From positions 186,001-250,000 of the forward strand of contig JAYWIR010000029.1 of the NCBI GenBank assembly GCA_036172245.1: 64,000 nt of DNA, read 5' to 3'. The position numbers and the translations under genes were made by a program. Position 1 is the stretch's first letter, and each line of letters opens with the position of its first letter. The notes under the pieces were generated by a model. The model saw only the letters and a list, made by a program, of their open reading frames with translations, was not told where the DNA came from and made no database searches. Positions 9,701 through 63,228 of this stretch are shown piece after piece. Source of the DNA: Raillietiella orientalis (Eukaryota).

Positions 9701-12700
9701 GTATGCTTACAGTTTTTTAATTTTGTTTTTAAATGCTTTTTTGATTTTTTCATAGCATGAATACATTCTTCATTGTCTTTTTTTTTCTGATTAAATTCAT
9801 CACATATTAATATCTTAAAAGATTATTTCTGACCCCTTTTGCATATTGTGATGAAATGCTTTAGATGACCTTATCCAAAGATGAGAACAGCAATATTTTT
9901 GGTTTTTAAGATACTGGATGTATTCAGTTTGCTGCAATTGTAGAATTTTTTCATTATTATAATTATGTCTTAATTTTCATTGTTTCATTTTTCTCCCCAG
10001 CATTTGAATAGGCTTTTATTGTGTAAAAGCAAAACTGCTTTTACTATGAAAATTATGGTCAAGTAACACTTAATAGTGCCATCAAATTGTAGTTGTATGA
10101 TAGAACTAACATCTTGCAACATATCATTATTAACAACATAAAAAAAGTTTGCTTGAATTTCAGAAAGTTAAAAAGAAGTTGGAATCCAGTTTTAAGATAT
10201 TTGAAGTACTGTTTATGTAACATTAATATTACTTGATGGAAAGCTCTGTTCAGTTGCTACTTTCGATTTTCTACTGTAGTTGTAAAATCCGAAATTTGGA
10301 TTCTAAAAATCCGTACAATGGCAAAATGGCATAGATTTAATTTTGGATATGTTACTTTTTTTTGACATTTTGGTTTAGAGCATAGAAATAAATGTTGTAG
10401 TGGAAGGTTTATGAAATTTGAATTTTGTTGGTAAAATTTTCGGTTCCTTAAAATTCACATTCATCTTACAATTTCAGCTGTTCTTCACAAGATACACTGA
10501 GTACCATTGGTAATTTGACACAGGATTCCTTCCAGAGACCTGTTTCTCCAACTTCATCCTTAACAAGTGAAAAAGGATTACCTGATTATGATCAAGTATA
10601 TTCATAATTTATTGTGAACTATTTTATTGTACCACAGTGTTACATTCCTTATGTAGTTCCAAGTTGAAAATGTGTGAACAGCACAATCTGTTCATAAATA
10701 TCTATTAAATAACTATTTTATTCAAAACATTTCATTTCATATTTATCTGTCTTCACGACATTTTGTAATATTTTAATTTCAAAATCTGTGGTAATAATAA
10801 AAAAACACCACCTTAATTAATATTAAGGTGGTGTTTTTTTGCATAAAGTTTAACTTCGTAATAATTTTTACTAGATTGAGTAACTTGGTCAATGAGGATC
10901 TGAATCGAGAATTAAGTTCTCTCTCTCATGTTTTAGTCAATACACTGTTGAAGTACCTTCCCACTTCTTTTTTATTTGACTTTTGCTTCAGAATGCATTT
11001 TTTAGAATTTCAAGTTATGGTTTATGTATTTTAATCTATGAAGGCATATTTTTCCTTTTTATTTTTACTGAATTTTGAATAATCGTAATAAACCAGAAAT
11101 GACTTTCATTGAGTAAATCAAATTGAAGCTTCAATCTGTAATGAAAATTTATTTTGTAATCGTAACTTCTGCATCTTTTTTTATGTCCATCTTTTATTAT
11201 GCCATGAAAAATATGCTGTATTTCATCAAATCAATTATGTAATAAAGTCAATGATAAAGTAATTCTCCTGTTGTTTGTAATCTCATCTGATCAGTATTGC
11301 GAATTCTTTTATAAGAACATTTTCTTGCATAAATACTTATTAGTACCTCATGAATGCTCCTGAGTGAATGCTTGGTTATGTTATGAACGGATACAGGAAA
11401 ACTAAACAAAATGAATAATAGGGAACATACAGATTATCCAAGATCAATCAGTTAAAACTGAAATGTATAGCAGATTTATTTTTGTCATTAAAGTTTATTT
11501 GAGATTGTAGAGCCTTAAATATCTGATTGAGTGTGCTCTTTCAAGTAGCCTGTTAAATTGACTCAGTTTTATAAGTTTATAGACACTGATTTTATTAAGT
11601 TGCAGCATGTTAATTTTCTTGGTACTTTCATCAATAATGTATCTACCCTTTTAAGTGTTGAGAAACTAAATTGCACAAATAAAAATATGGAATCTATTAC
11701 TTTTAGAATAAGAAATTGAATCCACTTTCAGCATTAACAAGTTGCTTTCCAGTAGTAGATTTGAATTTCTTCAGTCAGCACATATATGGAAAATAAATTA
11801 TTTGAATTATAATGGTATAATGGAAATGAAAATTTTATTGTAACTTCAAATTTTTAACTGTATGCAGCCATTATGTTCATTGCAATGCTGTACTTTTTTC
11901 ATGTTGATCAGTTGTACAGGTTGTTAAATAAGTCAGATTGAAATTTTCGATGATGCCTTGTTACATTAATGTTATTAAACGGTTATCACATTCAAAAATG
12001 AGTAGAGGGGGAGTGTGTTGGCAAACTGCACAAAGCATCATTTTAAAGCTCCGAAAAAGATTCCGTCAGGAATTGATTTCAATGGCACAGATTTTTTCAG
12101 ATAGCTGTTTATGATGGTATGTTACCAGGAGAATATGCAGAATCAATATGTGTTCTGTCATTTTATGTGAAATCTAAGACTCGGAAAGCAATCTTAAAAT
12201 AAATTTTGCTGTATACAACCATCGTATCTTTACACTTTTTTCCAAAGAGTCATATATTTTTTTAAGCAGAGCAGTTTGCTTTATTTGTTTTATTGAAGGC
12301 TACAAATGAAATATGTACCTGCAAGCATTTTCTTTTCGTAATGATTCATAAGGATCATTTGAGCACCTAATGAGAAATGGTGTTCTTGTTTCTGTCTCTT
12401 TCATTACGTTGGCATTGAAAAATTACATTGTGATTGGTGTTGCGAATTAAGTGACAGAACCACTAAAAATCAAAGAAATGTTTAAAGAAAGTAAGATATG
12501 TTCAGTTGGCTCATTAAAACGAAAATTTCCTCATTTAGGGTTTTTTGAGTTCTTTGTTCATTTTCAATGCAAAATTGGATGCAGTGAACAACAGTTTATT
12601 CTTCAGTTTTCGAAATACCGATTTTGCATATAACTTGTTGACTATGATTTAGGACAAACATGAAAAAGAAGAAAAAGAAAGGAAAATGCGATTACAACTT

Positions 12701-15700
12701 TACGTTTTTGTTCTTCGATGCATAGCATATCCATTCAGTGCCAAACCCACCACGGATTTAACACGCAAACAGCTGAAAGTAACCAAGCAGCACTTAGAGC
12801 AAATCCAAGCCAAATTTGAGGTCAGCACATTACTGAAAGAAACTCATGCTTCTATGTTTCATGTCAGAGTTTTTTTCGTGGCGAAATGCAGATTCCATCT
12901 GACGAAGCATTTCAGAACGTGATTCGAAATTATTATGATGTGTGCCTCAAATCTGATCGCCTTCTTCGCTTTGTGCAGTCTGGGGCCTGCTCCCAAAACG
13001 ACCTTAAAGAGATTTTTCGTAATAGCATAGAAAAGAGAATTAGGCAAGCAGACTCATTTGTTCCTTAGACAACTATTCTCAAATTTTCTGATTATATTAG
13101 ATCACTACCCGAGATGGATGGTCTTAGCAAAGAAACTGTACTTTCTTCTTGGGTTGCCAAATTTGATTGTATTATCAAAGGTAATGTTATCAATTCTCCC
13201 AGGGCAACCTTGGAATCACTTGAAAATTTCTTAATTTGCAATTTTTCTTCAGGAGAAGAAGAGGTTCGGAAACCTGCACGACTACAACCAACTTTAAATA
13301 ATGAACTAGTATTTTCTAAAGAACATCTGTTTGATACTTTCCAAAACATTTTGGGTATCAAGAAGTTTGAGCATCAATTGTTGTATAATGCTATGCAGGT
13401 GTGATGAATTAAAAGAAGTGCACTTTGCAATTTATTGTAATAGCTGGATTCAGCAGATGAACAAGCAGCAGCAATTCGTCGAGAATTGGATGGTCGCATG
13501 CAGAAAGTGGCAGAATTAGAAAAGGTAATTGGGATCTGCTTAATAAGTTGCATTTTATTTGTTGACAGAACCGAAAAGCCATGCCTAAATTTGTTCTAAA
13601 AGAAATGGAATCTATCTATGTTGATGAATTAAAATCATGTATCAGTACGTTAATGGCAAATCTGGAATCCCTGCCTGTATCTAAAGGATCAGCTGAATCG
13701 AAATATGGATTAAAAAATCTCAGGCGCTATAATCACAGGTAGAATTGGGAAGTTTTGAAATGTTGGTTGAACTGTGTTTAGATTGCCATTAACCTTTGTG
13801 ACAGACTTTATGGAAATCTTAGGTTTATATCAGATATGATGAGCAAACAGAATGACTGTAACATCTGGATAATTATATCTCAGATAATCAGATATTTATA
13901 CATCGTTTGTTATTGTTTGCCGAATAATTTGCACATTATCTAGCAAACAATCTACGATTGACCAAAATCTGGATGTATTTCTGCTCTTACTATAGGTGAA
14001 TTATTGATAAAGGAATTTGATATCTGGTTACATGAGATAACAACTATCAACCATTAGAATGCATGTGCGTTTGTCCAGATCCGCTTAGCTTTGTTTTTAT
14101 GCCTTCAAATGAATGAAACTGATTCAAGCATACTTTTGATGTGTGTGTAGATACATGGGTAATGACACCGAATAGTTATTATTAGTGAGTAGGCTTGTAG
14201 ATTTCAGCATTTAGAAATTTAAAATATTACAAGAACAGGTGTATGCTTTTATTATATTCTGATTGCCTTTTAATGGCATAGAAAATAAAAAGTAATTTTG
14301 CTTGAGGTTGACAGAGGAGGATCGCTTTTGCGAAGCTAGTATTAAAATTAAGGAAAGCGAAAAAATAAAGACGGTTCTGTGTTTAACCAGTGACACCGGA
14401 CAACAGTTGCGAAATACAAAAACTAATGTTGCTATTTAACTAAGTCATTGTTCTACACTTTATAAATAAAGTAAATTATTAAGAAAAATATCAAATTTAG
14501 ATATTATATTTGAAGTACACATATGCTCTTTGTGCTATGAAGAAAAGAAAACTGCAGTGCTTCTTCATTATCATTATTTTCCCATAATAAATCGGAAAAA
14601 ATAATGATAACTTACAATAAGAAAATGGATAAATTGAAATAGAATACACGAATGAATTTAAAAATAAACCTTGCAGTTCGAAAAATTAGACCCAATATTC
14701 ATTAAAAATCAAAAAAAAAAATTCATTGAAGTGCATTGCCATTTTTTATCTGCAGGAGTTATTCACAAGATTTATGCAAATATAATTTTACACCATTCTT
14801 GCAAATTTTTGTGCTCTTGATTTGAAGACATGAAACGAGATTAAATAAGAAATGACAAAGGTAAAGGTGTTAAGAACTTAACAGTGATCTGAATGAATAA
14901 AATGCAGTTTTGTTAAAAAAATTAATGATCTGATGAGAAAGTGAAATTGAAATCGCCACAATAATACAAGCCTATTTTTGGCTAAAAATTATTGAATAAC
15001 TAAATGATAACAGAGACATCAGTAATAATGGAAAAAAAATAGTACTTGTGAGATAAAGTATACTATTCATGCTTTGTGGAAGCATATTCCTGAATTGGTA
15101 TTTTGATTTTGCAAAAAGCGTACTTCAAGATCAGACACTTGAAGAAGACCATTTTACACATGACAAGTTATATCAATAAACAATGATTCTGAAAAGGATT
15201 AGGTTGTAAAATTACTAACTCTTCGATTGTAGTTTTAAAACTTCAAATTTTCGAAAGTATGATCGACTTGGTATGATGGAATTTAACACATGTAACCTTG
15301 CTACCATATTTTGCAATCTCGGAAACTGTGCACTTGTGCTTGTATGCCTTCTCAAGCAGTCATCTGATGCTGTGGTTTCCGATACGTAAATGTGCACAAC
15401 TTTTAAAAATATAAATTCTTTTTAAATCACAATCAGCTGTCATTAAACATGCAGTTGATTTAGTCATATAAACGAATTAACAGATTTTTATTATTCTCAT
15501 TGTTGATTAAATGTGCTGGTACTTTAGTTTAGTTTAGTTTGATTTGGTCTTCTTTTTTTTTTTTTTACTGTTCAAACATGCACAGACTGTAAGTTGAGTA
15601 TGGATCACACTTTCAGATATTTTCAGTGAGATTGTACATGAAACATTTTGACCTTATTGATCATTGATTAATGCTTGTGATATTGGGATAGTTGCTCCTT

Positions 15701-18700
15701 TTGTATTGATTTAATGTATCATTTGCTTGGTTTTTCAGCCGTCGCCGTGTCTCCATTCTCAGGCAGGTGTTTTATCCTGCATGTTTACTTTTCTGCAAAT
15801 TGAATGAAGTTGAATTTGTGTCATGTGATCTTTAGTGTAGTAAAACTAACAGCTTGCACATCCTCCTGGCTTTTGAATTTGTAGTTAGTCATCTTGTTGT
15901 TCCACTTTTTATGGGGTTCTTTAAGTTTAACATTTTTTTTTTCTTTATAGATCTCAGACTTCCTTACAAGGAGATCCTGTGGATACTGAGGTTCAGTTAT
16001 CAAAAATGGATGTAGTTTTGTCCTTTGGCATTGAGGTAGGGAAATTATTTGAAAAACCAATGCTGAAAAACGCAGTAGGTTATCGTCATTGAAGTCCGAG
16101 GACTGAAATCCTTGCCTCCTAACAGAGTCGTCTATTGTACTATGGAAGTAGATGGCACTAAATTACAAACAGATCAAGCAGAGGCATCACGACCTATGTG
16201 AGAAGCTATTTGTACATTTGTTTAGTTTAGTTGCATTCACTTATTGTATACAGGTGGGATACTCAGGGTGACTTTACTACTACCAACCCTTTGCCAACGG
16301 TAAAGATCAAATTATATGCTGAGTCTGCTAGCATGTTGTCCTTGGATGATAAAGAACTAGGAAAAATTATTCTTCATCCAACTCCATTTTCTAACAAAGT
16401 ATCAGAACTAGGAAAAATTCCCCTTATTAACTTTTTTGCTTTCTAGAGCCCTGAATGGCATAAGATGTTGGTTCCTAAACATGTGGCAGATACAGATATT
16501 CATATTAAAGTTGCCTGCCGGATGGATAAACCTTTAAATTTGAAACATTGCGGGTAAGTTTAGAATAGAAATGAGCTGTTGATAAATGATCGTAGTTATC
16601 TGTATGCCCTGGGCAAAGGAGTATGGAAAAAATGGAAAAAACGTTATTTTGGATTGGTGCAAGTTTCTCAGTATACTTTTGCTATGTGTAGCTATCGAGA
16701 AAAGAAAGCTGAACCGGTAGAACTTCTCCAGCTAGATAACTACACAGTTGATTATATTGAAGCAGCCAGTGGTGAGTAGATCTTTGCCAAAAAAAAAAGA
16801 AGACAATTTCGAATTTTATTTTGCATTCAGTTTTTTTTGTGCATTATGCATTGTTATCGTTTTTGATTATTATCATGTCACTTTTGATTATTATTGCTTT
16901 TGGTTTCTAAAAACTTAACGCATTCATAAATCAGTTTTTATTTCTTCTTTGTTTTCTTGTAATTATCACCATGAATGTTTCTTTCAGCCAATCTAATGGT
17001 GGGCATGGGTGAGTAGTCTCAGTAGGTACAAAAAATTTGCAAAAGTAATTTTGCTAAGATTTGGAAGGCGGACGTTATTTTTTCAATGCAGTCAAAGAGG
17101 GAGATAGCGTCATTTTTGCCAGTGATGATGAAAATGAATATCATTTATGGGTGATGGCGTTGTATCGTGCCACAGGTCAAGCACACAAACCAACCCCACT
17201 TCTGATCCCTGCCAGTAATAGGAATTCAACAATTTCAAAATTGCAAGGAGGTAAAAGATTTTGCCAAATATTTTAATGGCTTGTGTAGATGCAGATCGAG
17301 CTCGCAAGCATGGCATGGAGGAATATATATGTGCTGATCCTTGTCAATTTGACCATCATGCCTTGTTTAAATCACTACAGGAAATGGCACTTGATTTCAG
17401 ACTTAAGGAACCATATTGCTCCCTGGTGAATATATCATTAGCATTGACTACATGTGATACTGTAAATCAGGGATGGTTCAGTCCAGGACAACTTCTAGTG
17501 CTTGATGAATATGTTTTGCGGTATGGTGTGCGGGGATGCTTTCGTCATTTGTATTATCTGGAAGATTTGTTAACAAGAGCAGAAAGTGGCATTATGATCG
17601 ATCCCAATCTTTTACATTTTAGTTTTGCTTATTGTGCCAGCCATGTTCATGGAAATAGGTAAAAAAAAAAAAAAAAATATTTTACTTCTATAACAAATGC
17701 TGAAAACAGACCTGACAATATTGAAACTGTGCTTCATGAAGAGAAACAGCGGTTCCAGCAGGTGAAAGAGAGACTACGTATTTTGTTAGAAAATCAAGTG
17801 ACAAGTTTTAGGTAAGATTCTTGTTAGAAGTTATCCCTACGAACCTTATTTCTTCACTAACATTTCTGTACTTGTTAACCCTAACAGGTATTCTTTCCCA
17901 TTTGGGAGACCTGAAGGAGCCCTCAAGTCAACGCTTTCACTCTTGGAACGTGTAGGTGTTTTTCAACTGTCTGTTTTTTTTTCCCCAAAGCACCATTTTC
18001 TCCCAATGACTCCATTGTTTATCTTGACCTTTAATGCTCTACCTTCCAGGTTCTTATGAAAGATATAGTTACACCAGCCTTGCCAGATGAAGTGCGCAAA
18101 GTAGTGCGTAAATGCCTTGAAAATGCAGCTTTGCTCAACTACGAACAGCTGACTGCTGATATGCAAATAGAAGGTGAACAATACAATTTTTATTGCATTA
18201 AGTTAATTCACTTGATTTCAGAAAATTTAGATCCTGAATCACAAGTACTTCCTTCAAAAAAATTAGAAGATTTAATTCATTTGGCTGAGTATTGTGTAGA
18301 TCTTTTACAGCATAATGAAGAGCATTATTCAGAAGTAAGTAGCATTGAAAAGCACTAAAGATGTTATCATCTCGCCAGGCCTTAGCATGGTTTAGTGATA
18401 TTGTGGTAGAGCATGAAGAGATTTTCTGGTCATTATTTGTTGTGGATATGGACCAAGTTTTAGAGGAACAATCATTAGACACTTGGGATGCGTTTCCATT
18501 GTTTCAAATTCTCAATGATTATTTATGTTCAGATGGTAAGGATGGCTCATTCCCCTATCGAAAAAAATTTTTTTCTCATCCTTCCTCGCAGAAAACTTGA
18601 AGAATGGACGATTCCATCAACATCTAAGAGATACATTCGCACCCATGGTGATTCGATATGTGGATTTAATGGAGTCGTCCATTGCCCAATCTTTATTCAG

Positions 18701-20305
18701 AGGGTTTGAAAAAGAGCGCTGGGAACAAAAAGGGTATGCTAGAAGAATCATTCTCGTTTTTCTTCATTGATACAATATGGTTCATTTTCGCCACCTGGAT
18801 TTTATAGGAATGGTTGTAACACATCAGAGGAACTTTTTTGGAAATTGGATGCTTTGCAGACGTTTATTTACGATTTGCATTGGCCTGATCCAGAGTTTGG
18901 TCACCATCTATGCCAGAGACTCAAGTCACTTGCCTGTGATATGCTTGAATCTTGTATCCAAAGGTAAACTCTTTGAAACAGGAAACACCAGTTTATTTTT
19001 TCATAGAACTGACGCTGCATTTCATCTTTGGTTGAAAAAAGGAGGCCTTTTTGCAGGCACAGATTATGTTTTGCCTGCTGAACTTTGCACTATGATTAAT
19101 GTGGTATTAGATACTAAAAACCAGTCTTATAAATTATGTGTTCTGGATGGTGTTGATTTAGTAAGTAAAATATTGATATTAATACAAAAATATTTCTGCT
19201 CAGCATCAGTACCACACCAAAATAGATGAACTAATCGAAAAGACAACCGTAGATATTGTTCAGAGTTTGTTGAATAAACTGCAGTCTGTCCTTGAAGGGA
19301 TATTAGGCAAACTAGCACGTTATGATGAAGGGAGCCTTCTTGGTTCCCTGCTTACATTAACGGTAGTAGATTTTACGTGTTTTTCCAACTGACTTTATGA
19401 CAGAGTGTATCTGGCTCTGGCCGGGAAGTAGGTCAAGCATACATTACATTTCTGCAAAACAATATGGAGCAAATGCGCACACGAATCAATGATGAAATGT
19501 GGCTTTTGGGTTTTTTTGAGGTAAATGATCTTGGTTTACTATTAGCAACAATCCATTAGCACTATTCTGTTTTGTCTAGCAATGGTATGCAAACCAAGTA
19601 CGTTTAATTAGTTCTTGGTTATCAGAGCGGTTGGATCATACTTTGCATCCTTATCAATGTACTTGTCTCTGTCACATCGTCAAGGTAATCTCGTTCTCAT
19701 TAGTTATTAGCACTGAATTAAGGGATGGGTGGGATAGGCTCTTCCAGAGGTATACTTTGCTTTGGGGGTCACTACTAAAAGGCGTCAGGCTCCAGCTCTT
19801 GCTGGTATTGATCAGCGTCTGGAAGCCATGATGGCCCATCTGTGAAGTCGGCCAGCCATAGGTAGTTTGGTAGTGGGGTGTGCTTGCTAACTTGGTGATG
19901 GCTGTGTGATATCAGAATATCTTATGCTAGTTTTCTTATGACTGTTGTTTTTTTTTTTAGAAACTCTACTCTGATTTTGAGCTGCAAGGAGTGGTAGAAG
20001 AAAAGCTCAATTCTCGAACTTACGAAACTATTCTGTTACGAATGCAGTCCGAGGAAGCAGCATGTGCCTTGCTCATGGATACCCACAAATCCACATCATT
20101 AGATTTTCAAGGATCTTTAAGGAAGTCTTCACATACAGCATCCTCTGGTTCTGCCTCTGCTCTTTGTATCAATTCAAACTCTGATTCCAATTATGTCACC
20201 AAGATTCACTCTGCTACATCTAATGTGGCAGGCCGTATGAGCAACATGTTGGGAAAATCAATTGGCTCATTTGCCAATAAATTTGGTGGTAGTGTTCGCT
20301 TTTGA
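6758..20305 (+). CDS. Cadps: Calcium-dependent secretion activator (CAPS/CADPS, UNC-31 orthologue) with C2, PH and MUN/MHD domains. Exons: 6758-6945, 10478-10595, 12653-12820, 12868-13043, 13101-13180, 13253-13398, 13444-13524, 13569-13738, (15739-15762), 15951-16035, 16079-16197, 16254-16398, 16447-16553, 16596-16771, 16988-17008, 17059-17250, 17289-17425, 17471-17658, 17710-17811, 17888-17951, 18050-18173, 18222-18334, 18379-18535, 18592-18733, 18808-18963, 19007-19160, 19204-19362, 19404-19520, 19580-19684, 19961-20305
   Basis: The spliced translation gives hallmark CAPS peptides: [10 protein letters not shown] start, [62 protein letters not shown] (C2), [32 protein letters not shown] (PH), [55 protein letters not shown] and DFELQGV. 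Introns are GT/GC-AG with consistent phases. Confidence 0.97.
15739..15762 (+). CDS. Cadps: Putative 24-nt CAPS microexon encoding (S)RRRVSIL(R)
   Basis: GC-rich 24-mer after tttttcag in an AT-rich intron. It is phase 2 to phase 2 between RRYNH and SQTSL if the GC donor (ag|gcaggt) is used. Confidence 0.55.
19738..19845 (+). CDS. Cadps: Putative alternative terminal exon of CAPS ([35 protein letters not shown])
   Basis: Phase-0 open segment after AG at 19736-19737, which gives a 53-nt intron from the 19685 donor. It aligns without gaps to the start of the canonical last exon. Confidence 0.6.
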   Translation, partial: ALPEVYFALGVTTKRRQAPALAGIDQRLEAMMAHL

Positions 20306-20561
20306 GAATTTTCGGATATTGCTCCTTTTAATCAGAAATAGACTCAGTATTGTGATGTTTTCTTATTCTTCTGATCCCTTTCATGTTTTGAAGTAACTAC
20401 ATTGATAAGAGTTATTACCATCCCATCCAGTTCTTTAGATTGAGACAGTGCTCCTTCATCTTTACATGCAAATGTTTCCAGTTAATCAAGTAATGATGCC
20501 TTCGATCTTTGATAATTTTTCTTAATCATTGTTATTGAATCATAAGAGATTTCTTTTGTAC

Positions 20562-20567
20562 AATAAA
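20562..20567 (+). promoter_or_regulatory. Candidate polyadenylation signal of CAPS
   Basis: AATAAA about 260 nt after the stop codon at 20305. Confidence 0.5.
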
Positions 20568-21292
20568 AAAAAATGCATTTTTGAATATGGTGTTTATATT
20601 AAAATTTAAAGCTATATGGGTGTCTTGGAGAACAGAAGAGTAAGCTTATTGGTAGTATTGATTAAAAAGTAGTATTGATTTTAAAAATTTGGTGAGCAAC
20701 TATTGGGAAATAAAAGCTAATTTGAAATGTGACTTACTTGCTCAAATTGTACATAATGCACAATTCGTTTCATTTAGTTGTATAATTATGTAATTATTTA
20801 TTGATAACTGTGTGTGACTTATTTGGCCCTAAAGGTCTATACAACTTTGGAATGTCATAAACTTCATTTTCAAAAGACAAGTGAGAAGTGATCTAGGGTT
20901 TTAAGCTCAGTGCAGAAGCATATGAGAAAGCAATCCTTGCAGAAGTATTTGCTACAAAGCATTAAATTGAAAATTGTCAATCAGTGTGTATAAAAAATTG
21001 ATACATTTGAAAGGAAACTATTGCAGCTAAACAAATTTTTGACAATTTTTTCATCAAGCATTTAATTTTGCTGAAGGGCTTTCATGCTTACTCTGAGATA
21101 TCTAGCTAATATCAGGATCCTAATTTGTTACAAGTCGAGATTTTCTATTTTTGTGAACTCTAAAATCAAACTAAGTGACTTCTTTCATGAATAGAAACCA
21201 TGATGAGATTTCAACACTATGTTTCTACCAAGATTGGATTTCAACTGTTGGATATTTCGTAGAGGAATATTCTTGTAGATATACTGCTGTAG

Positions 21293-26013: not shown

Positions 26014-29000
26014 ACCGGTGCATTCAGCATTATTTGATTTTATTGGCAAATGCCAATGTAAAGGATCTGATGTGGATGTGTTTATTTAATTAATCAAGTG
26101 TTATCTCAGAAAAAAGCATGAACTTTTTTGATTCACAAAGAAAAATTAGGAATCCTAGGGAAGAAGTATAGAAGAATAAAGGTTTTTGTAGATGCCAACA
26201 TTTTTATATTTTGTGAAATTCATGTTAAGAGGCAGTCATATTATTAATCAGGATTTCTTGAATAGGTTTAATTATCTGGTCATAAAATATGCAATATCCA
26301 TCACTTTAAGTTAATATTGTGATATATCAACTATAAGCCAACTCCTAGTAAATTTGCTTCAAGAATTTTTTACATACAGTTTTCAGTTTTGAAGGCTTGT
26401 GACTTTATATGGCGAAAAAATGTAGAGGGAAAAATTTCTGTAACACAAATTTGATAATTATTTTAGGCCATATTGATGAAGTTATTGTTTTTCTGTCACT
26501 TTGAAATCATAGAAGTTGATGTAAAAGTCAAATTTAAAACAATACTGTACTCAGAAAACGAAAACCAGTGATACTTCCCCCAATGTTATGCATTCTTTGA
26601 CCATAAGCGGAACTTATTCAATAATATTTAAGGGAATGACAAATGTGGAATCCAGCTTAGTGGCATAACTGATTGCCAAGACATTCCAGCAGAGTAATCA
26701 ATGGTAAATGATGGGAAAATGCTTTGCTAATAAAAAAAACTTTTAATTTGAAGTGCAGTTTGATGACATTTTTCTGATTGTAGTAGTTAGTAATTGCTAA
26801 TCTGTAATTTTATCTTGTCTTTGTAATATATTTTAGTTATGAGACTATTTATACTATTCATACAGGTCAAAACAGTTTTTCTGTGATCTTAAGGAAGAGA
26901 TTGCTGAGAGGAGAAGCTGTTGAGCTGAATAGAATCACCAGTTGAAACTAGTAATACTCAAAAGTAATAGCATTCAATAGCTTCTTGAGGGATTGCAAAA
27001 ACATTTGTCTACAAGAATGCGCTCAAATTTTGTGTAAGAATATGCATAGCGAAATGTCATCAAATGGACAGCTGAAGTAGAAAATATTGCAAGAAATGAC
27101 GAGCTACCCTCAAATTATTTTCCTCAAATCATCTCCATTTTAAAGTTGATTCATTCAGATTATAGAATGGAATTACTACTATGAACTGATGAATTGCAAT
27201 TTGTTTGTCATATTATTTTTTATCGTTCTTGCTTAGATAAGTGTGCTTTCACTTTTGAGAATCTGAGATAAGCCATAGTAATTTTGGAAATGATCGTACC
27301 TCGTATTCATTCATTACTTGCATTTAATCTCGCAACTCAAAATCAAAAGGTCTGTAATAAGTGTTGTTTTGACTAAGGATTCTTAAATATCAGAGTTTTG
27401 TTTGCTCCTGAAAAGGATAGTTCAGTTTATGTTTGGTAAAATTGGAACCTCAAAGATTGATAAGGGTTGTGATAATAGAAACTATCCTGCAAGGTGGGAC
27501 TTGTATTCTCAACTATTTTTCTGTTGAATAGTGAATGCAAAAAAGAAATAACTTCATGTTTTTAATTAGTGGCGTTTTCATCTCACTCCAATCATGTGAC
27601 TGCGTTGATTGCAGGCTTTATCAATTTCTTTACTCTGTTTCTAACATTAGGTATCCAGTGCATCTGGATCCCATTACGTTACAGATTCATCACATTAGAT
27701 TAGCTTACATTCTCTACAGGAGACAAGGATTCATTGCGTTACTCAGAATATGAAATATGAAAAAAAAGAACAAAAGTAAAGATGAAATTTGGAGTTAAAG
27801 CCGAAAATCATTTAGGTTGACATTTACTGCTACATTTTACTGCCAAAACAATTCATTCGTGGTACCGAGAGCACTGCACATGGGACCAAGCATAATCCAT
27901 GCATGCGATCCAGGGACGAAAGAACCAGGAACAGTTCCATGCTTTTAAAAGGTCTTTATATAATGTAGAAATATTATATGAGGAGAATGTGCTACTAAAT
28001 AATCTTTTCAGCACAAACAATCCTTAAGAGTCTTTGCTGAGTGAAATGAATCCAAAAACAGATGCATTTAAAATAGTAATTCATTATGATTACACCTTCT
28101 CTCATACTACGGGGTGAAGTTTGTCATCCCTTTTTTTTCTAACCTGATTTCTTCGCGTTTTGATCATTTGGACTTGCAATCGTGGCAAACAGGAAGAAGA
28201 ATTTCCCTGGTTGCAGCGTCAAGACTGAAAGACCGACTGGATCATATTCAGAAAATTACTACTACTGAATCAGAAATACTGTTTCATTCATTCAGAGTGA
28301 CCTCACCATGAACGCATCCGTCCTCATGAGATCGGTGGTTTTCATCTCAAGATGCAAGACAACGAAACGACCTTCTAGGAGTACAAAGGGTAAAAAGAGC
28401 CTCCGAATTTTTAGAGGATGAGGATGCTTCAATCGGGATGCTCTGCTAATCCAATATCTTTAATAATCCGTGGCATTTCAGATATGTTCTTCGCTTGAAA
28501 GAATCAGGTGAGGTATGGAAACCTGAACAAAAAGATATTTCCTCAAACCACAGAAAAAAAGCCATAGAAAAAAACCTGGGTGGATCGCTGAAGTTGTCGA
28601 TCGAAATCTCAGAATGATTCTTTAAGTCATAAACATCCACCCAATGAATGCTTTCCTTAATTATCTCTTCTATTTTTCTGTCAATCAAGAAAAGAGAATG
28701 AGATCATTTTTTATGAGATGAATACAAGAATAGGAAGCTCAGAAAAGCATGTTAAGTCATTTCTCTTAAATTCTCTGCCTTGCTGAGGTGGCCCAATTTC
28801 TGGAGAACAAAAGTAGGATTGAGGGCATTTATAATTTTACATAGTAAGGGAAAATAATATTAAGCTATTAAGTAAGGAGCTAAGAAGCCTCGACATTTGA
28901 AAATACCTTTCATCCAAAAGAAAAATGTGTGACATCGAAAGAGGATGCAATATTGCGAAAAACAGTGGAAATAGAAAAAATACATTTGCTCAGAAAAGAT

Positions 29001-32948: not shown

Positions 32949-63228
<30,280 letters not shown>

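Follow-up and report, generated by a model that had tools for sequence, protein, structure and literature searches.

A candidate alternative C-terminal exon in the last intron of the CAPS gene of Raillietiella orientalis

Short CAPS isoforms and duplicated exons

CAPS (CADPS) is the calcium-dependent secretion activator, a secretion-priming protein with C2/PH/MUN-type domains. The first-pass annotation of the DNA studied here connected the C-terminal region of this protein with dense-core-vesicle association, and the connection is indeed stated in the cited parts of two papers (PMC1853102; PMC5589909), one of which places the dense-core-vesicle domain at residues 1220-1355 of mouse CAPS-1 (PMC5589909). 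Short isoforms without the C-tail domain that mediates this association are described for mouse in the cited part of Sadakata et al. (2007, PMC1853102), where CAPS2d, 2e and 2f arise through an additional unique 3' exon. No such short isoforms are described for CAPS-1 in the cited portion of the other paper (PMC5589909). Adjacent exon duplicates form a second relevant group, and human CADPS2 is placed among three-exon clusters in a study whose cited sections do not mention an arthropod CAPS exon (PMC6071210). Our literature search found no publication describing a pancrustacean CAPS alternative C-terminal exon.

Annotated isoforms offer a further precedent. In decapods, Daphnia and Artemia there are CAPS isoforms that, past the corresponding exon junction, run into a diverged copy of the beginning of the last exon. 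Among the 28 decapod cluster members listed, a 42-residue insert separates the ...HIVK exon from the canonical exon in 13, the protein ends 43 residues past the junction in 8, and 7 are canonical. Short ends are also present in 2 of the 14 Daphnia isoforms listed (42 residues past the junction) and in 2 of the 7 listed for Artemia (48 residues). Any two of these exon versions have 10-13 of 42 residues in common. In addition, Logan contigs of 7.9-9.0 kb encode uninterrupted short CAPS forms (P0137, P0139 and P0140) and probably represent spliced transcripts. The alternative exon was not seen among the isoforms listed for a barnacle (14), a stomatopod (14), a springtail (11 of 13, the remaining two records having no canonical exon start) or hexapods.

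A structure model of a 70-residue Scylla fragment (P0227; mean pLDDT 81.7) places a turn at an invariant glycine and predicts a long helix over exon residues 18-38; the fragment displays the helices and does not extend to their packing on the MUN domain. A search of the PDB by sequence (E<=1) returned no solved structure for this region of CAPS.

The last CAPS intron and its candidate exon

The window, by which we mean the whole 64-kb stretch of DNA analysed, contains a CAPS gene whose spliced model spans 12653-20305. Its 25 introns (24 GT-AG and one GC-AG) leave 3,708 nt of open sequence in which the only stop is the terminal one. The model is 68% identical to the orthologue P0004 over 1,256 aligned positions, and is collinear over its full length with, and 66-69% identical to, the best 40 insect and crustacean CAPS proteins; domains PF25341, PF06292 and PF00169 were seen on the orthologues. 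The organism's own CAPS is absent from the 90% protein clusters, where the best match to its last exon is 44% identical. A quick tree, with a taxon set that lacked chelicerates and myriapods, groups the protein with barnacle and malacostracans (SH-aLRT 91) on a branch of length 0.72. Such a long branch fits the presence of a very diverged exon copy.

Introns of this gene are mostly tiny, with a median of 48 nt and 22 of the 25 falling between 38 and 98 nt; the long ones measure 276, 287 and 2,212 nt. Because the 287-nt intron hides a conserved 21-nt microexon, long introns of this gene do accommodate alternative exons. The last intron (19685-19960) is the one of 276 nt, and its GC content of 0.45 is the highest of all, the remaining 24 ranging from 0.18 to 0.41, so that it is both long and GC-rich, as the first-pass annotation had described it. 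This intron follows the penultimate coding exon (19580-19684, plus strand), which ends in phase 0 with a conserved ...HIVK and is 48 to 71% identical to its counterpart in those metagenome loci in which tblastn detected it. The last coding exon of the canonical form (19961-20305, plus strand) comprises 114 codons and a TGA; its start is conserved and leads into a Ser-rich tail. The first AATAAA 3' of its stop is at 20562.

Within this intron, flanked by the ...HI[VT]K exon on one side and the canonical last exon on the other, lies the candidate alternative exon (19738-19845, plus strand), which is supported by similarity and codon usage. An in-phase frame of 35 sense codons (19738-19842) and a TGA (19843-19845) is present exactly as had been claimed. 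It begins in phase 0 immediately after an AG (19736-19737), which is supplied by a TAG at 19735-19737, and its first codon is in register with that of the canonical exon. The start at 19738 is in phase because the penultimate exon (to 19684) and the canonical exon (from 19961) both break at whole codons. If the candidate were used, the segment upstream (19685-19737, plus strand) would be removed as a GT...AG intron of 53 nt with the donor aag/GTAATC, an ordinary length for this gene.

Composition agrees with coding to a limited degree. GC content by codon position is 0.71/0.46/0.40, an ordering that matches the coding sequence, and frame 0 has a codon-usage log-likelihood ratio of 12.7, against 4.4 +/- 4.7 in stop-free shuffles (p 0.035, a modest fit). 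The frame lies in a GC-rich core of the intron (19722-19905; GC 0.53, with flanks of 0.40 and 0.26) that extends about 60 nt past the candidate stop, and coding therefore cannot account for all of the block. Other frames are open in the intron as well, namely a 79-codon frame on the minus strand, which has no match in Pfam, and an intron-retention frame. The predicted end had been described as more basic than the canonical one and free of its Ser-rich tail, and both descriptions are correct: K/R and D/E residues number 4 and 3 in the candidate and 4 and 7 in the first 35 canonical residues, and the canonical tail has 18 Ser in 79 residues.

Comparison with the gene's own last exon yields a faint likeness. 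The gap-free alignment reported previously could be reproduced, with 6 identities and 13 positives over 35 residues and a BLOSUM62 sum of +4. Shuffling gives p values of 0.0055 for the score and 0.021 for the identities, and the match is equalled by 105 of the 28,901 stop-free 35-codon windows in the 64 kb. BLASTP between the two found nothing at E<=100. With a profile built from the canonical exon starts of arthropods (49 distinct sequences), the likeness is stronger, shuffling giving p 0.0006 compared with the 0.0055 obtained with the gene's own exon alone. We judge that an open frame with this likeness to its own exon would not be convincing without outside evidence.

The decapod exon provides that evidence. 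For this comparison the register was fixed beforehand (same intron, same phase, offset 0), and the candidate was scored gap-free against a six-sequence profile, where it reaches 20.67 (shuffle p 1.1-1.8e-4). Among 106,502 distinct stop-free 35-codon windows drawn from both strands of the 64-kb window and 80 loci, 45 score at least as high, and these are 43 canonical exon starts, the candidate itself and one unrelated window. The top score in other animals, taken over 34 homologous introns that measure 100 nt or more, is 16.3. When only the 1,907 windows that follow an AG are ranked, the canonical exon is first and the candidate second. A profile of all three crustacean lineages performs comparably on shuffles (p 1.8e-4), with five unrelated windows attaining the candidate's score. 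Likeness to single exons is weak, both for Daphnia (p 0.0098; 254 unrelated windows as good) and for Artemia (p 0.013; 757).

The candidate departs from the family in two respects. Alignment of 44 alternative and canonical sequences defines four invariant columns (Asp5, Gly10, Arg27 and Glu31), of which the candidate keeps Gly10 and Arg27 and replaces the others with Val and Met. Furthermore, the end motif [LM]-I-R-x-G at positions 35-39 is represented only by Leu35, after which comes the TGA; the motif is absent after the candidate in frame 0 and, when read by eye, in both other frames. It also counts against an alternative exon here that L014, whose penultimate exon is the most similar of the loci compared, has an intron of just 84 nt in this position.

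We put at roughly 55% the probability that the candidate belongs, as a lineage-specific and strongly diverged member, to an old family of pancrustacean alternative exons that provide CAPS with a short C-terminus. The old duplication of the last-exon start proposed in the first-pass annotation is supported by the decapod, Daphnia and Artemia isoforms and by the fixed-register decapod match. By this reading, a tandem duplication of the beginning of the last coding exon, approximately 40 codons, would have placed an alternative exon in the preceding intron. Splicing from 19684 to the candidate via the AG at 19737 would then let the candidate's own TGA end the protein 35 residues on. The product would keep a paralogous helix but be deprived of the canonical tail of 114 residues, a part of the region with which mammalian CAPS binds dense-core vesicles, and vesicle binding might be affected. 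The suggestion in the first-pass annotation that such a short isoform could be a switch for vesicle targeting is speculative.

Splice sites and competing explanations

How the candidate would be joined to the transcript is best judged from its flanks. Its acceptor is no better than a random AG: the AG at 19736-19737 has a position weight matrix (PWM) score of -1.39, a value equalled or exceeded by 52% of 429 decoy AGs. Three of the 25 real acceptors are about as low or lower (-2.11, -1.33 and -1.18). A better acceptor (2.91) is present 10 nt downstream and would open a different frame. On the 3' side, a donor-like site (tag/GTAGTT, 19862-19867, plus strand) scores 6.31, near the leave-one-out median of about 7.1 for real donors. 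Its use would define a stop-carrying cassette of 124 nt (19738-19861) followed by a 99-nt downstream intron; otherwise the rest of the intron might be retained.

The first-pass annotation called the candidate an alternative last exon. In the strict sense of a poly(A)-dependent terminal exon this is unlikely: 13 poly(A)-signal hexamers were searched for in 19846-19960, before the canonical acceptor, and none occurs there. For the same reason, either a cassette with its own stop or an alternative 3' splice site is the likelier arrangement.

The rival that survives best, itself unlikely in our estimation, holds that the candidate descends from the ancient alternative exon and is no longer spliced, being removed with the whole 276-nt intron through the very strong canonical acceptor. 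That acceptor (19940-19960, plus strand) contains a run of 11 T and is the strongest of the 25, with a PWM score of 12.52 in the full model and 12.37 when left out of training. Also in favour of a relic are the candidate acceptor, indistinguishable from decoys, the loss of two of the four invariant residues together with the end motif, and the isoform lists for barnacle, stomatopod, springtail and hexapods, which would fit repeated loss of the exon. Composition by itself would leave such a frame open with a probability of 22% (5,000 of 22,775 composition-matched shuffles are free of stops over 35 codons). However, an unused block of GC 0.53, in a gene whose other introns have GC contents of 0.18-0.41 and are mostly shorter than 100 nt, should have been eroded or deleted. 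The codon usage still fits the frame, and this frame is intact to codon 35 in a family whose exons have 42-48 codons. These features count against a relic.

Mere coincidence was initially our leading reading, at odds of about 85%, and was dropped once the crustacean isoforms and the decapod-exon match had been found; we now regard it as improbable. It takes the block for unrelated GC-rich sequence, inserted into the intron or filling it, open because GC-rich DNA is poor in stop codons, and its likeness to CAPS exons for an accident. Several observations are in its favour. The frame was picked with the sequence already in view, and further frames are open in the block, including the 79-codon one. 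The single unrelated window noted above, at 28144, scores 28.8 against the decapod exon and thus outscores the candidate, so that chance can attain such scores. No local-alignment search was significant. With the decapod exon as query, tblastn reached the candidate only at E 9.5, and tblastn of the candidate peptide against the 80 loci, a kind of check proposed in the first-pass annotation, had a best E of 5. When the 35-residue peptide was compared by phmmer with 1.84 billion representatives, the sole match (P0124) was an artefact, a tandem-repeat protein in which 7-8 of 19-23 residues are matched many times over. This library holds one protein per 50% cluster, and a short CAPS isoform of this species could therefore hide behind another representative. 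The ESM Atlas gave no usable match for the candidate.

Against coincidence, the fixed-register decapod score is attained by just one unrelated window of the 106,502, and by none of approximately 6,500 windows in the 34 homologous introns. Moreover, the GC-rich block has no second copy in the 64 kb, where a repeat search found short repeats only and no terminal repeats of a mobile element. Searching with the intron by blastn against the window and the 80 loci gave only matches to T-runs.

Least probable is that the intron hosts a small RNA or a splicing-regulatory element in which the reading frame is incidental. In its favour, about 55 nt separate the end of the GC-rich block from the 3' splice site, G-runs lie just 5' of the candidate, and folding of the minus strand of 19720-19925 is somewhat more stable than in shuffles (z -2.21; 5 of 200 as good). 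Against it, the sense strand of that segment folds no better than shuffles (z -1.17; 30 of 200), Rfam at E<=10 places nothing inside 19685-19960 (with eight weak matches elsewhere in 19000-20600), a tRNA search of the window found none, and no C/D or H/ACA box arrangement is seen by eye. It would also leave unexplained why the candidate resembles the alternative exon at fixed register.

Implications and comparison with known systems

A stronger form of our preferred reading, a diverged member of the pancrustacean alternative exon, is that the candidate is a true orthologue of one alternative exon common to Decapoda, Branchiopoda and this fast-evolving lineage, a proposition that we place a little short of even odds. 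If true, the duplication would date to an early pancrustacean ancestor, and a short CAPS isoform, apparently lost in hexapods, would have been retained by selection over several hundred million years. Comparing two natural isoforms would then put the role of the CAPS C-tail to a direct test, and such a pair, differing only in the tail, would be a clean tool for C-tail function. The candidate in the window is strongly diverged, being 23% identical to the decapod exon. If it is expressed, the few positions that matter might be the turn at Gly and the residues Q-R-[LVI]-E; if it is not, the candidate would exemplify how long an exon relic stays recognisable. In addition, with introns of about 48 nt in this gene, the few long ones might mark hidden alternative exons.

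The closest counterpart is the decapod CAPS exon, RefSeq-predicted in Penaeus vannamei (X11, P0021), Homarus americanus (X7, P0025) and Penaeus monodon (X8, P0138), with further predicted examples in Cherax (X16, P0230) and Eriocheir (X15, P0231). Like it, the candidate occupies the same junction in the same phase and resembles a diverged duplicate of the canonical last-exon start, and the two have 8 of 35 residues identical at offset 0. The decapod exon is approximately 90% conserved across decapods (counted on six versions), and ends in I-R-x-G-K, a motif that the candidate lacks. Decapod short isoforms terminate 43 residues past the junction. The candidate has its TGA after codon 35. The decapod exon comprises 42 codons without an internal stop and can thus also serve as an in-frame cassette before the canonical exon, as in the 13 of 28 members listed.

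The short isoforms of Daphnia (P0240 and P0242) and Artemia (P0269 and P0270) use the same junction and, as the candidate would, their own stop, which in these species comes 42 or 48 residues on. Gly10 and Arg27 are common to the candidate, Daphnia and Artemia, and the initial L-P to the candidate and Daphnia. Identity with the candidate is 6/35 for Daphnia and 4/35 for Artemia (p about 0.01 each).

The mouse isoforms are partial parallels. CAPS2d, 2e and 2f are truncated from points far upstream (in exons 14, 12 and 5, respectively) and lack the Munc13-homology domain as well, and the cited part of that paper does not present their terminal exons as last-exon duplicates (PMC1853102). Mutually exclusive exon clusters are another parallel, since in them, according to the cited sections, an adjacent exon duplicate serves as the alternative (PMC6071210). 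Unlike the strict mutual exclusion described there, the CAPS duplicate either carries a stop or, in decapods, is included together with its parent exon.

The CAPS gene and its last intron

The eukaryotic window carries a CAPS/CADPS gene on the plus strand that extends at least from 12653 to 20305. We modelled this gene by combining ungapped tblastn blocks against a stored orthologue protein (P0004) with a search for frame-keeping GT...AG pairs. The spliced frame of 3,708 nt has a single terminal stop, and its product shares 68% identity with P0004 across 1,256 aligned positions and 66-69% with the 40 top-scoring CAPS proteins among those stored for insects and crustaceans. In a quick tree of 31 CAPS proteins, it falls within the arthropods (SH-aLRT 100), on a branch of 0.72 compared with a median of 0.13. 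Its grouping with a barnacle and malacostracans (SH-aLRT 91, not starred) is tentative, because it stems from a quick tree only and from a set without chelicerate or myriapod proteins.

There are 25 introns, 24 of them GT-AG and one GC-AG (13044-13100 (+), donor ag/GCAAGC). Their median length is 48 nt and 22 fall between 38 and 98 nt, leaving three long introns of 2,212, 287 and 276 nt. The 287-nt intron (16772-17058 (+)) contains a phase-compatible microexon of 21 nt (16988-17008 (+)) with good splice sites (acceptor tttctttcag, donor gtgagt) that encodes exactly the seven residues of P0004 between the flanking exons. The 2,212-nt intron (13739-15950 (+)) coincides with six additional residues in P0004; a simple motif scan found no microexon matching these six residues there, and a further hidden exon may be present. 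The last intron (19685-19960), at 276 nt, has the highest GC content of the 25 (0.45; others 0.18-0.41), an excess due to a core at 19722-19905 with a GC content of 0.53. Among 80 metagenome loci used for comparison, 48 include both exons flanking this junction; the intron is absent in 10 and measures 64 to 1,979 nt in the remaining 38, and thus varies in presence among animal lineages.

Elsewhere in the window, an open frame at 43473-43952 (-) encodes an Ets DNA-binding domain (PF00178, E 6.7e-24) and belongs to an adjacent gene for a transcription factor. Towards the far end of the window (43000-64000) GC content climbs: values of about 0.27-0.36 at 7-16 kb give way to 0.50-0.60 at 51-64 kb, and nine long open frames in this last interval lack Pfam matches.

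A candidate exon and its probable crustacean counterparts

The first-pass annotation proposed that 19738-19845 (+) is a cryptic, duplicated alternative last exon that gives CAPS a second C-terminus. The reading frame is as described: 35 sense codons followed by TGA, beginning directly after an AG (TAG 19735-19737) and in phase with the exon ending at 19684. The proposed gap-free alignment with the canonical last exon (19961-20305 (+)) was likewise reproduced, with 6 identities, 13 positives and a BLOSUM62 sum of +4 (shuffle p 0.0055). An equal or better likeness to this exon is found in 105 of the 28,901 stop-free 35-codon windows of the 64 kb, and BLASTP of the candidate against the gene's own last exon yields no match at E<=100. 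On its own, this likeness is weak. Moreover, 22% of composition-matched shuffles of the candidate are stop-free, and this block is also open in a 79-codon frame on the minus strand and in an intron-retention frame. Given the weak likeness and these other open frames, our initial reading, held with considerable assurance, was a chance ORF; it was given up after the profile and isoform comparisons and is kept as a rival.

The start of the canonical last exon is almost invariant across arthropods, and the candidate fits a profile of 49 distinct arthropod versions (8.67; shuffles -27.8 +/- 10.3; p 0.0006) better than it fits the exon of its own gene. We surveyed the continuation after the penultimate exon in 130 stored, motif-bearing CAPS proteins of at least 700 aa. 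The canonical sequence follows in 114 and lophotrochozoan spellings of it in 10, while the other six, all decapod entries, carry a different but clearly related segment of 42 residues. The canonical exon comes after this segment in P0021 (Penaeus vannamei X11) and P0025 (Homarus X7), and proteins P0137-P0140 end 43 residues past the junction. The 28 decapod cluster members listed (Penaeus, Homarus, Cherax, Eriocheir, Scylla and Petrolisthes) comprise 13 cassette, 8 short and 7 canonical forms. Related tails end 42 residues past the junction in Daphnia (2 of 14 isoforms among those listed) and 48 residues past it in Artemia (2 of 7 among those listed). The alternative exons of the three lineages have 10-13 of 42 residues in common pairwise and 6-9 in common with the window's canonical exon.

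No such exon was seen among the isoforms listed for Amphibalanus (14), Oratosquilla (14), Hyalella (1), mayflies (14), or termites, cockroach and stick insect (14), nor in 11 of 13 listed for Folsomia (the other two lack the canonical exon start) or 12 for leafhoppers. Two further, partial leafhopper records also lack the canonical exon start, and one of these ends 6 aa past the junction. The kind of exon envisaged by the annotation, a duplicated alternative at the same junction, therefore exists in annotated isoforms of at least three crustacean lineages. Its presence in automatic RefSeq isoform models means that it is already known to databases.

Kinship and use of the candidate

Kinship was assessed in a register fixed beforehand (same intron, same phase, offset 0, gap-free). 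Eight of the candidate's 35 residues are identical to those of the Penaeus and Homarus alternative exons, and the BLOSUM sums are +19 and +21, compared with -28.5 +/- 11.7 for shuffles (z 4.1-4.2; p 1.8e-4 and 1.1e-4). Its score against a six-sequence decapod profile, 20.67, is reached by 3 of 28,901 windows in the 64 kb, namely the candidate itself, the canonical exon and one unrelated stretch, at 28144. In the 80 metagenome loci, 42 of the 77,601 distinct windows attain it, all of them canonical CAPS exon starts. Only one of the pooled 45 of 106,502 is thus unrelated. This stretch, 28144-28248 (+), lies within a 73-codon frame and scores 28.8 against the decapod alternative exon, above the candidate; there is no sign of a gene around it, and we take it as a chance match. 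Among 1,907 windows preceded by AG, the canonical exon ranks first and the candidate second in the decapod exon test, and the top score among the 34 homologous introns from other animals that measure 100 nt or more is 16.3 (about 6,500 windows, summed counts). Scores against one lineage alone are 5.0 for Daphnia (p 0.0098) and 0.0 for Artemia (p 0.013), and an equally weighted three-lineage profile gives 8.56 (p 1.8e-4), a score reached by five unrelated windows. These similarity tests are interdependent because all targets are homologous, and in an unanchored tblastn search with the decapod exon the candidate appears at a non-significant E of 9.5. As judged by these comparisons, homology to the crustacean alternative exon is very probable.

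Whether the exon is used is a separate matter. In favour of use, its codon usage fits frame 0 (log-likelihood ratio 12.7 versus 4.4 +/- 4.7 for stop-free shuffles, p 0.035), and its GC content by codon position (0.71/0.46/0.40) has the same ordering as in the CDS (0.51/0.34/0.33). The upstream segment of 53 nt has a normal CAPS intron length, and the block lies far above every other CAPS intron in GC content, which would be hard to maintain without constraint. Furthermore, the microexon in the 287-nt intron shows that long introns of this gene mark alternative exons. Against use, the candidate acceptor scores -1.39 by PWM, near the decoy median, and only 3 of 25 real acceptors have scores about as low or lower; the AG at 19747 scores better (2.91) and would open another frame. 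The candidate has lost two of four residues that are invariant across 44 alternative and canonical sequences, it lacks the family end motif, the GC-rich block continues 60 nt beyond the stop, and none of 13 poly(A)-signal hexamers searched for precedes the canonical acceptor.

On balance, we favour, at about 55%, a genuine, diverged representative of an old alternative exon through which CAPS acquires a short C-terminus. A relic that shares this ancestry but is no longer used would account for the poor acceptor and the lost residues but not for the codon usage, and we consider it rather unlikely. Chance would agree with the weak likeness to the gene's own exon, but the decapod profile comparisons make it more doubtful still, and another element altogether is highly improbable. 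The annotation thus holds in its observations of frame, phase and alignment, and its interpretation stands in part, now with a diverged duplicate-exon family at the junction behind it.

If the exon is used, it would most likely enter the transcript in one of two ways: as a cassette of 124 nt (19738-19861) that ends at the donor-like site at 19862 (PWM 6.31), or through the AG at 19737 acting as an alternative 3' splice site. By both routes, the TGA at 19843 would terminate the protein and the canonical exon would become 3' UTR. The stop would be 16 nt upstream of the last junction.

The predicted short C-terminus

A 70-aa Scylla fragment (P0227), which joins the end of the penultimate exon to the alternative tail, was modelled in isolation with a 44-sequence alignment of mostly canonical rows (mean pLDDT 81.7). 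In this model, a helix spans the exon junction, a turn occurs at the invariant Gly, and a long helix covers exon residues 18-38. A sequence search found no solved structure of this CAPS region. The link to vesicles drawn by the annotation agrees with the literature, according to which this region belongs to the part of CAPS that binds vesicles: CAPS associates with dense-core vesicles through its C-tail (PMC1853102), and deletion of 135 residues from the DCV domain of mouse CAPS-1 (residues 1220-1355) impairs this association (PMC5589909). Thus, the predicted short isoform would retain a paralogous helix but lose the tail, possibly altering vesicle targeting.

Our literature search found no paper on the arthropod alternative exon; one article names human CADPS2 in a list of mutually exclusive exon clusters and says nothing more of it (PMC6071210). 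A parallel is provided by mouse CAPS2d-f, which are likewise short isoforms with unique 3' exons, although these proteins are cut much further upstream (PMC1853102).
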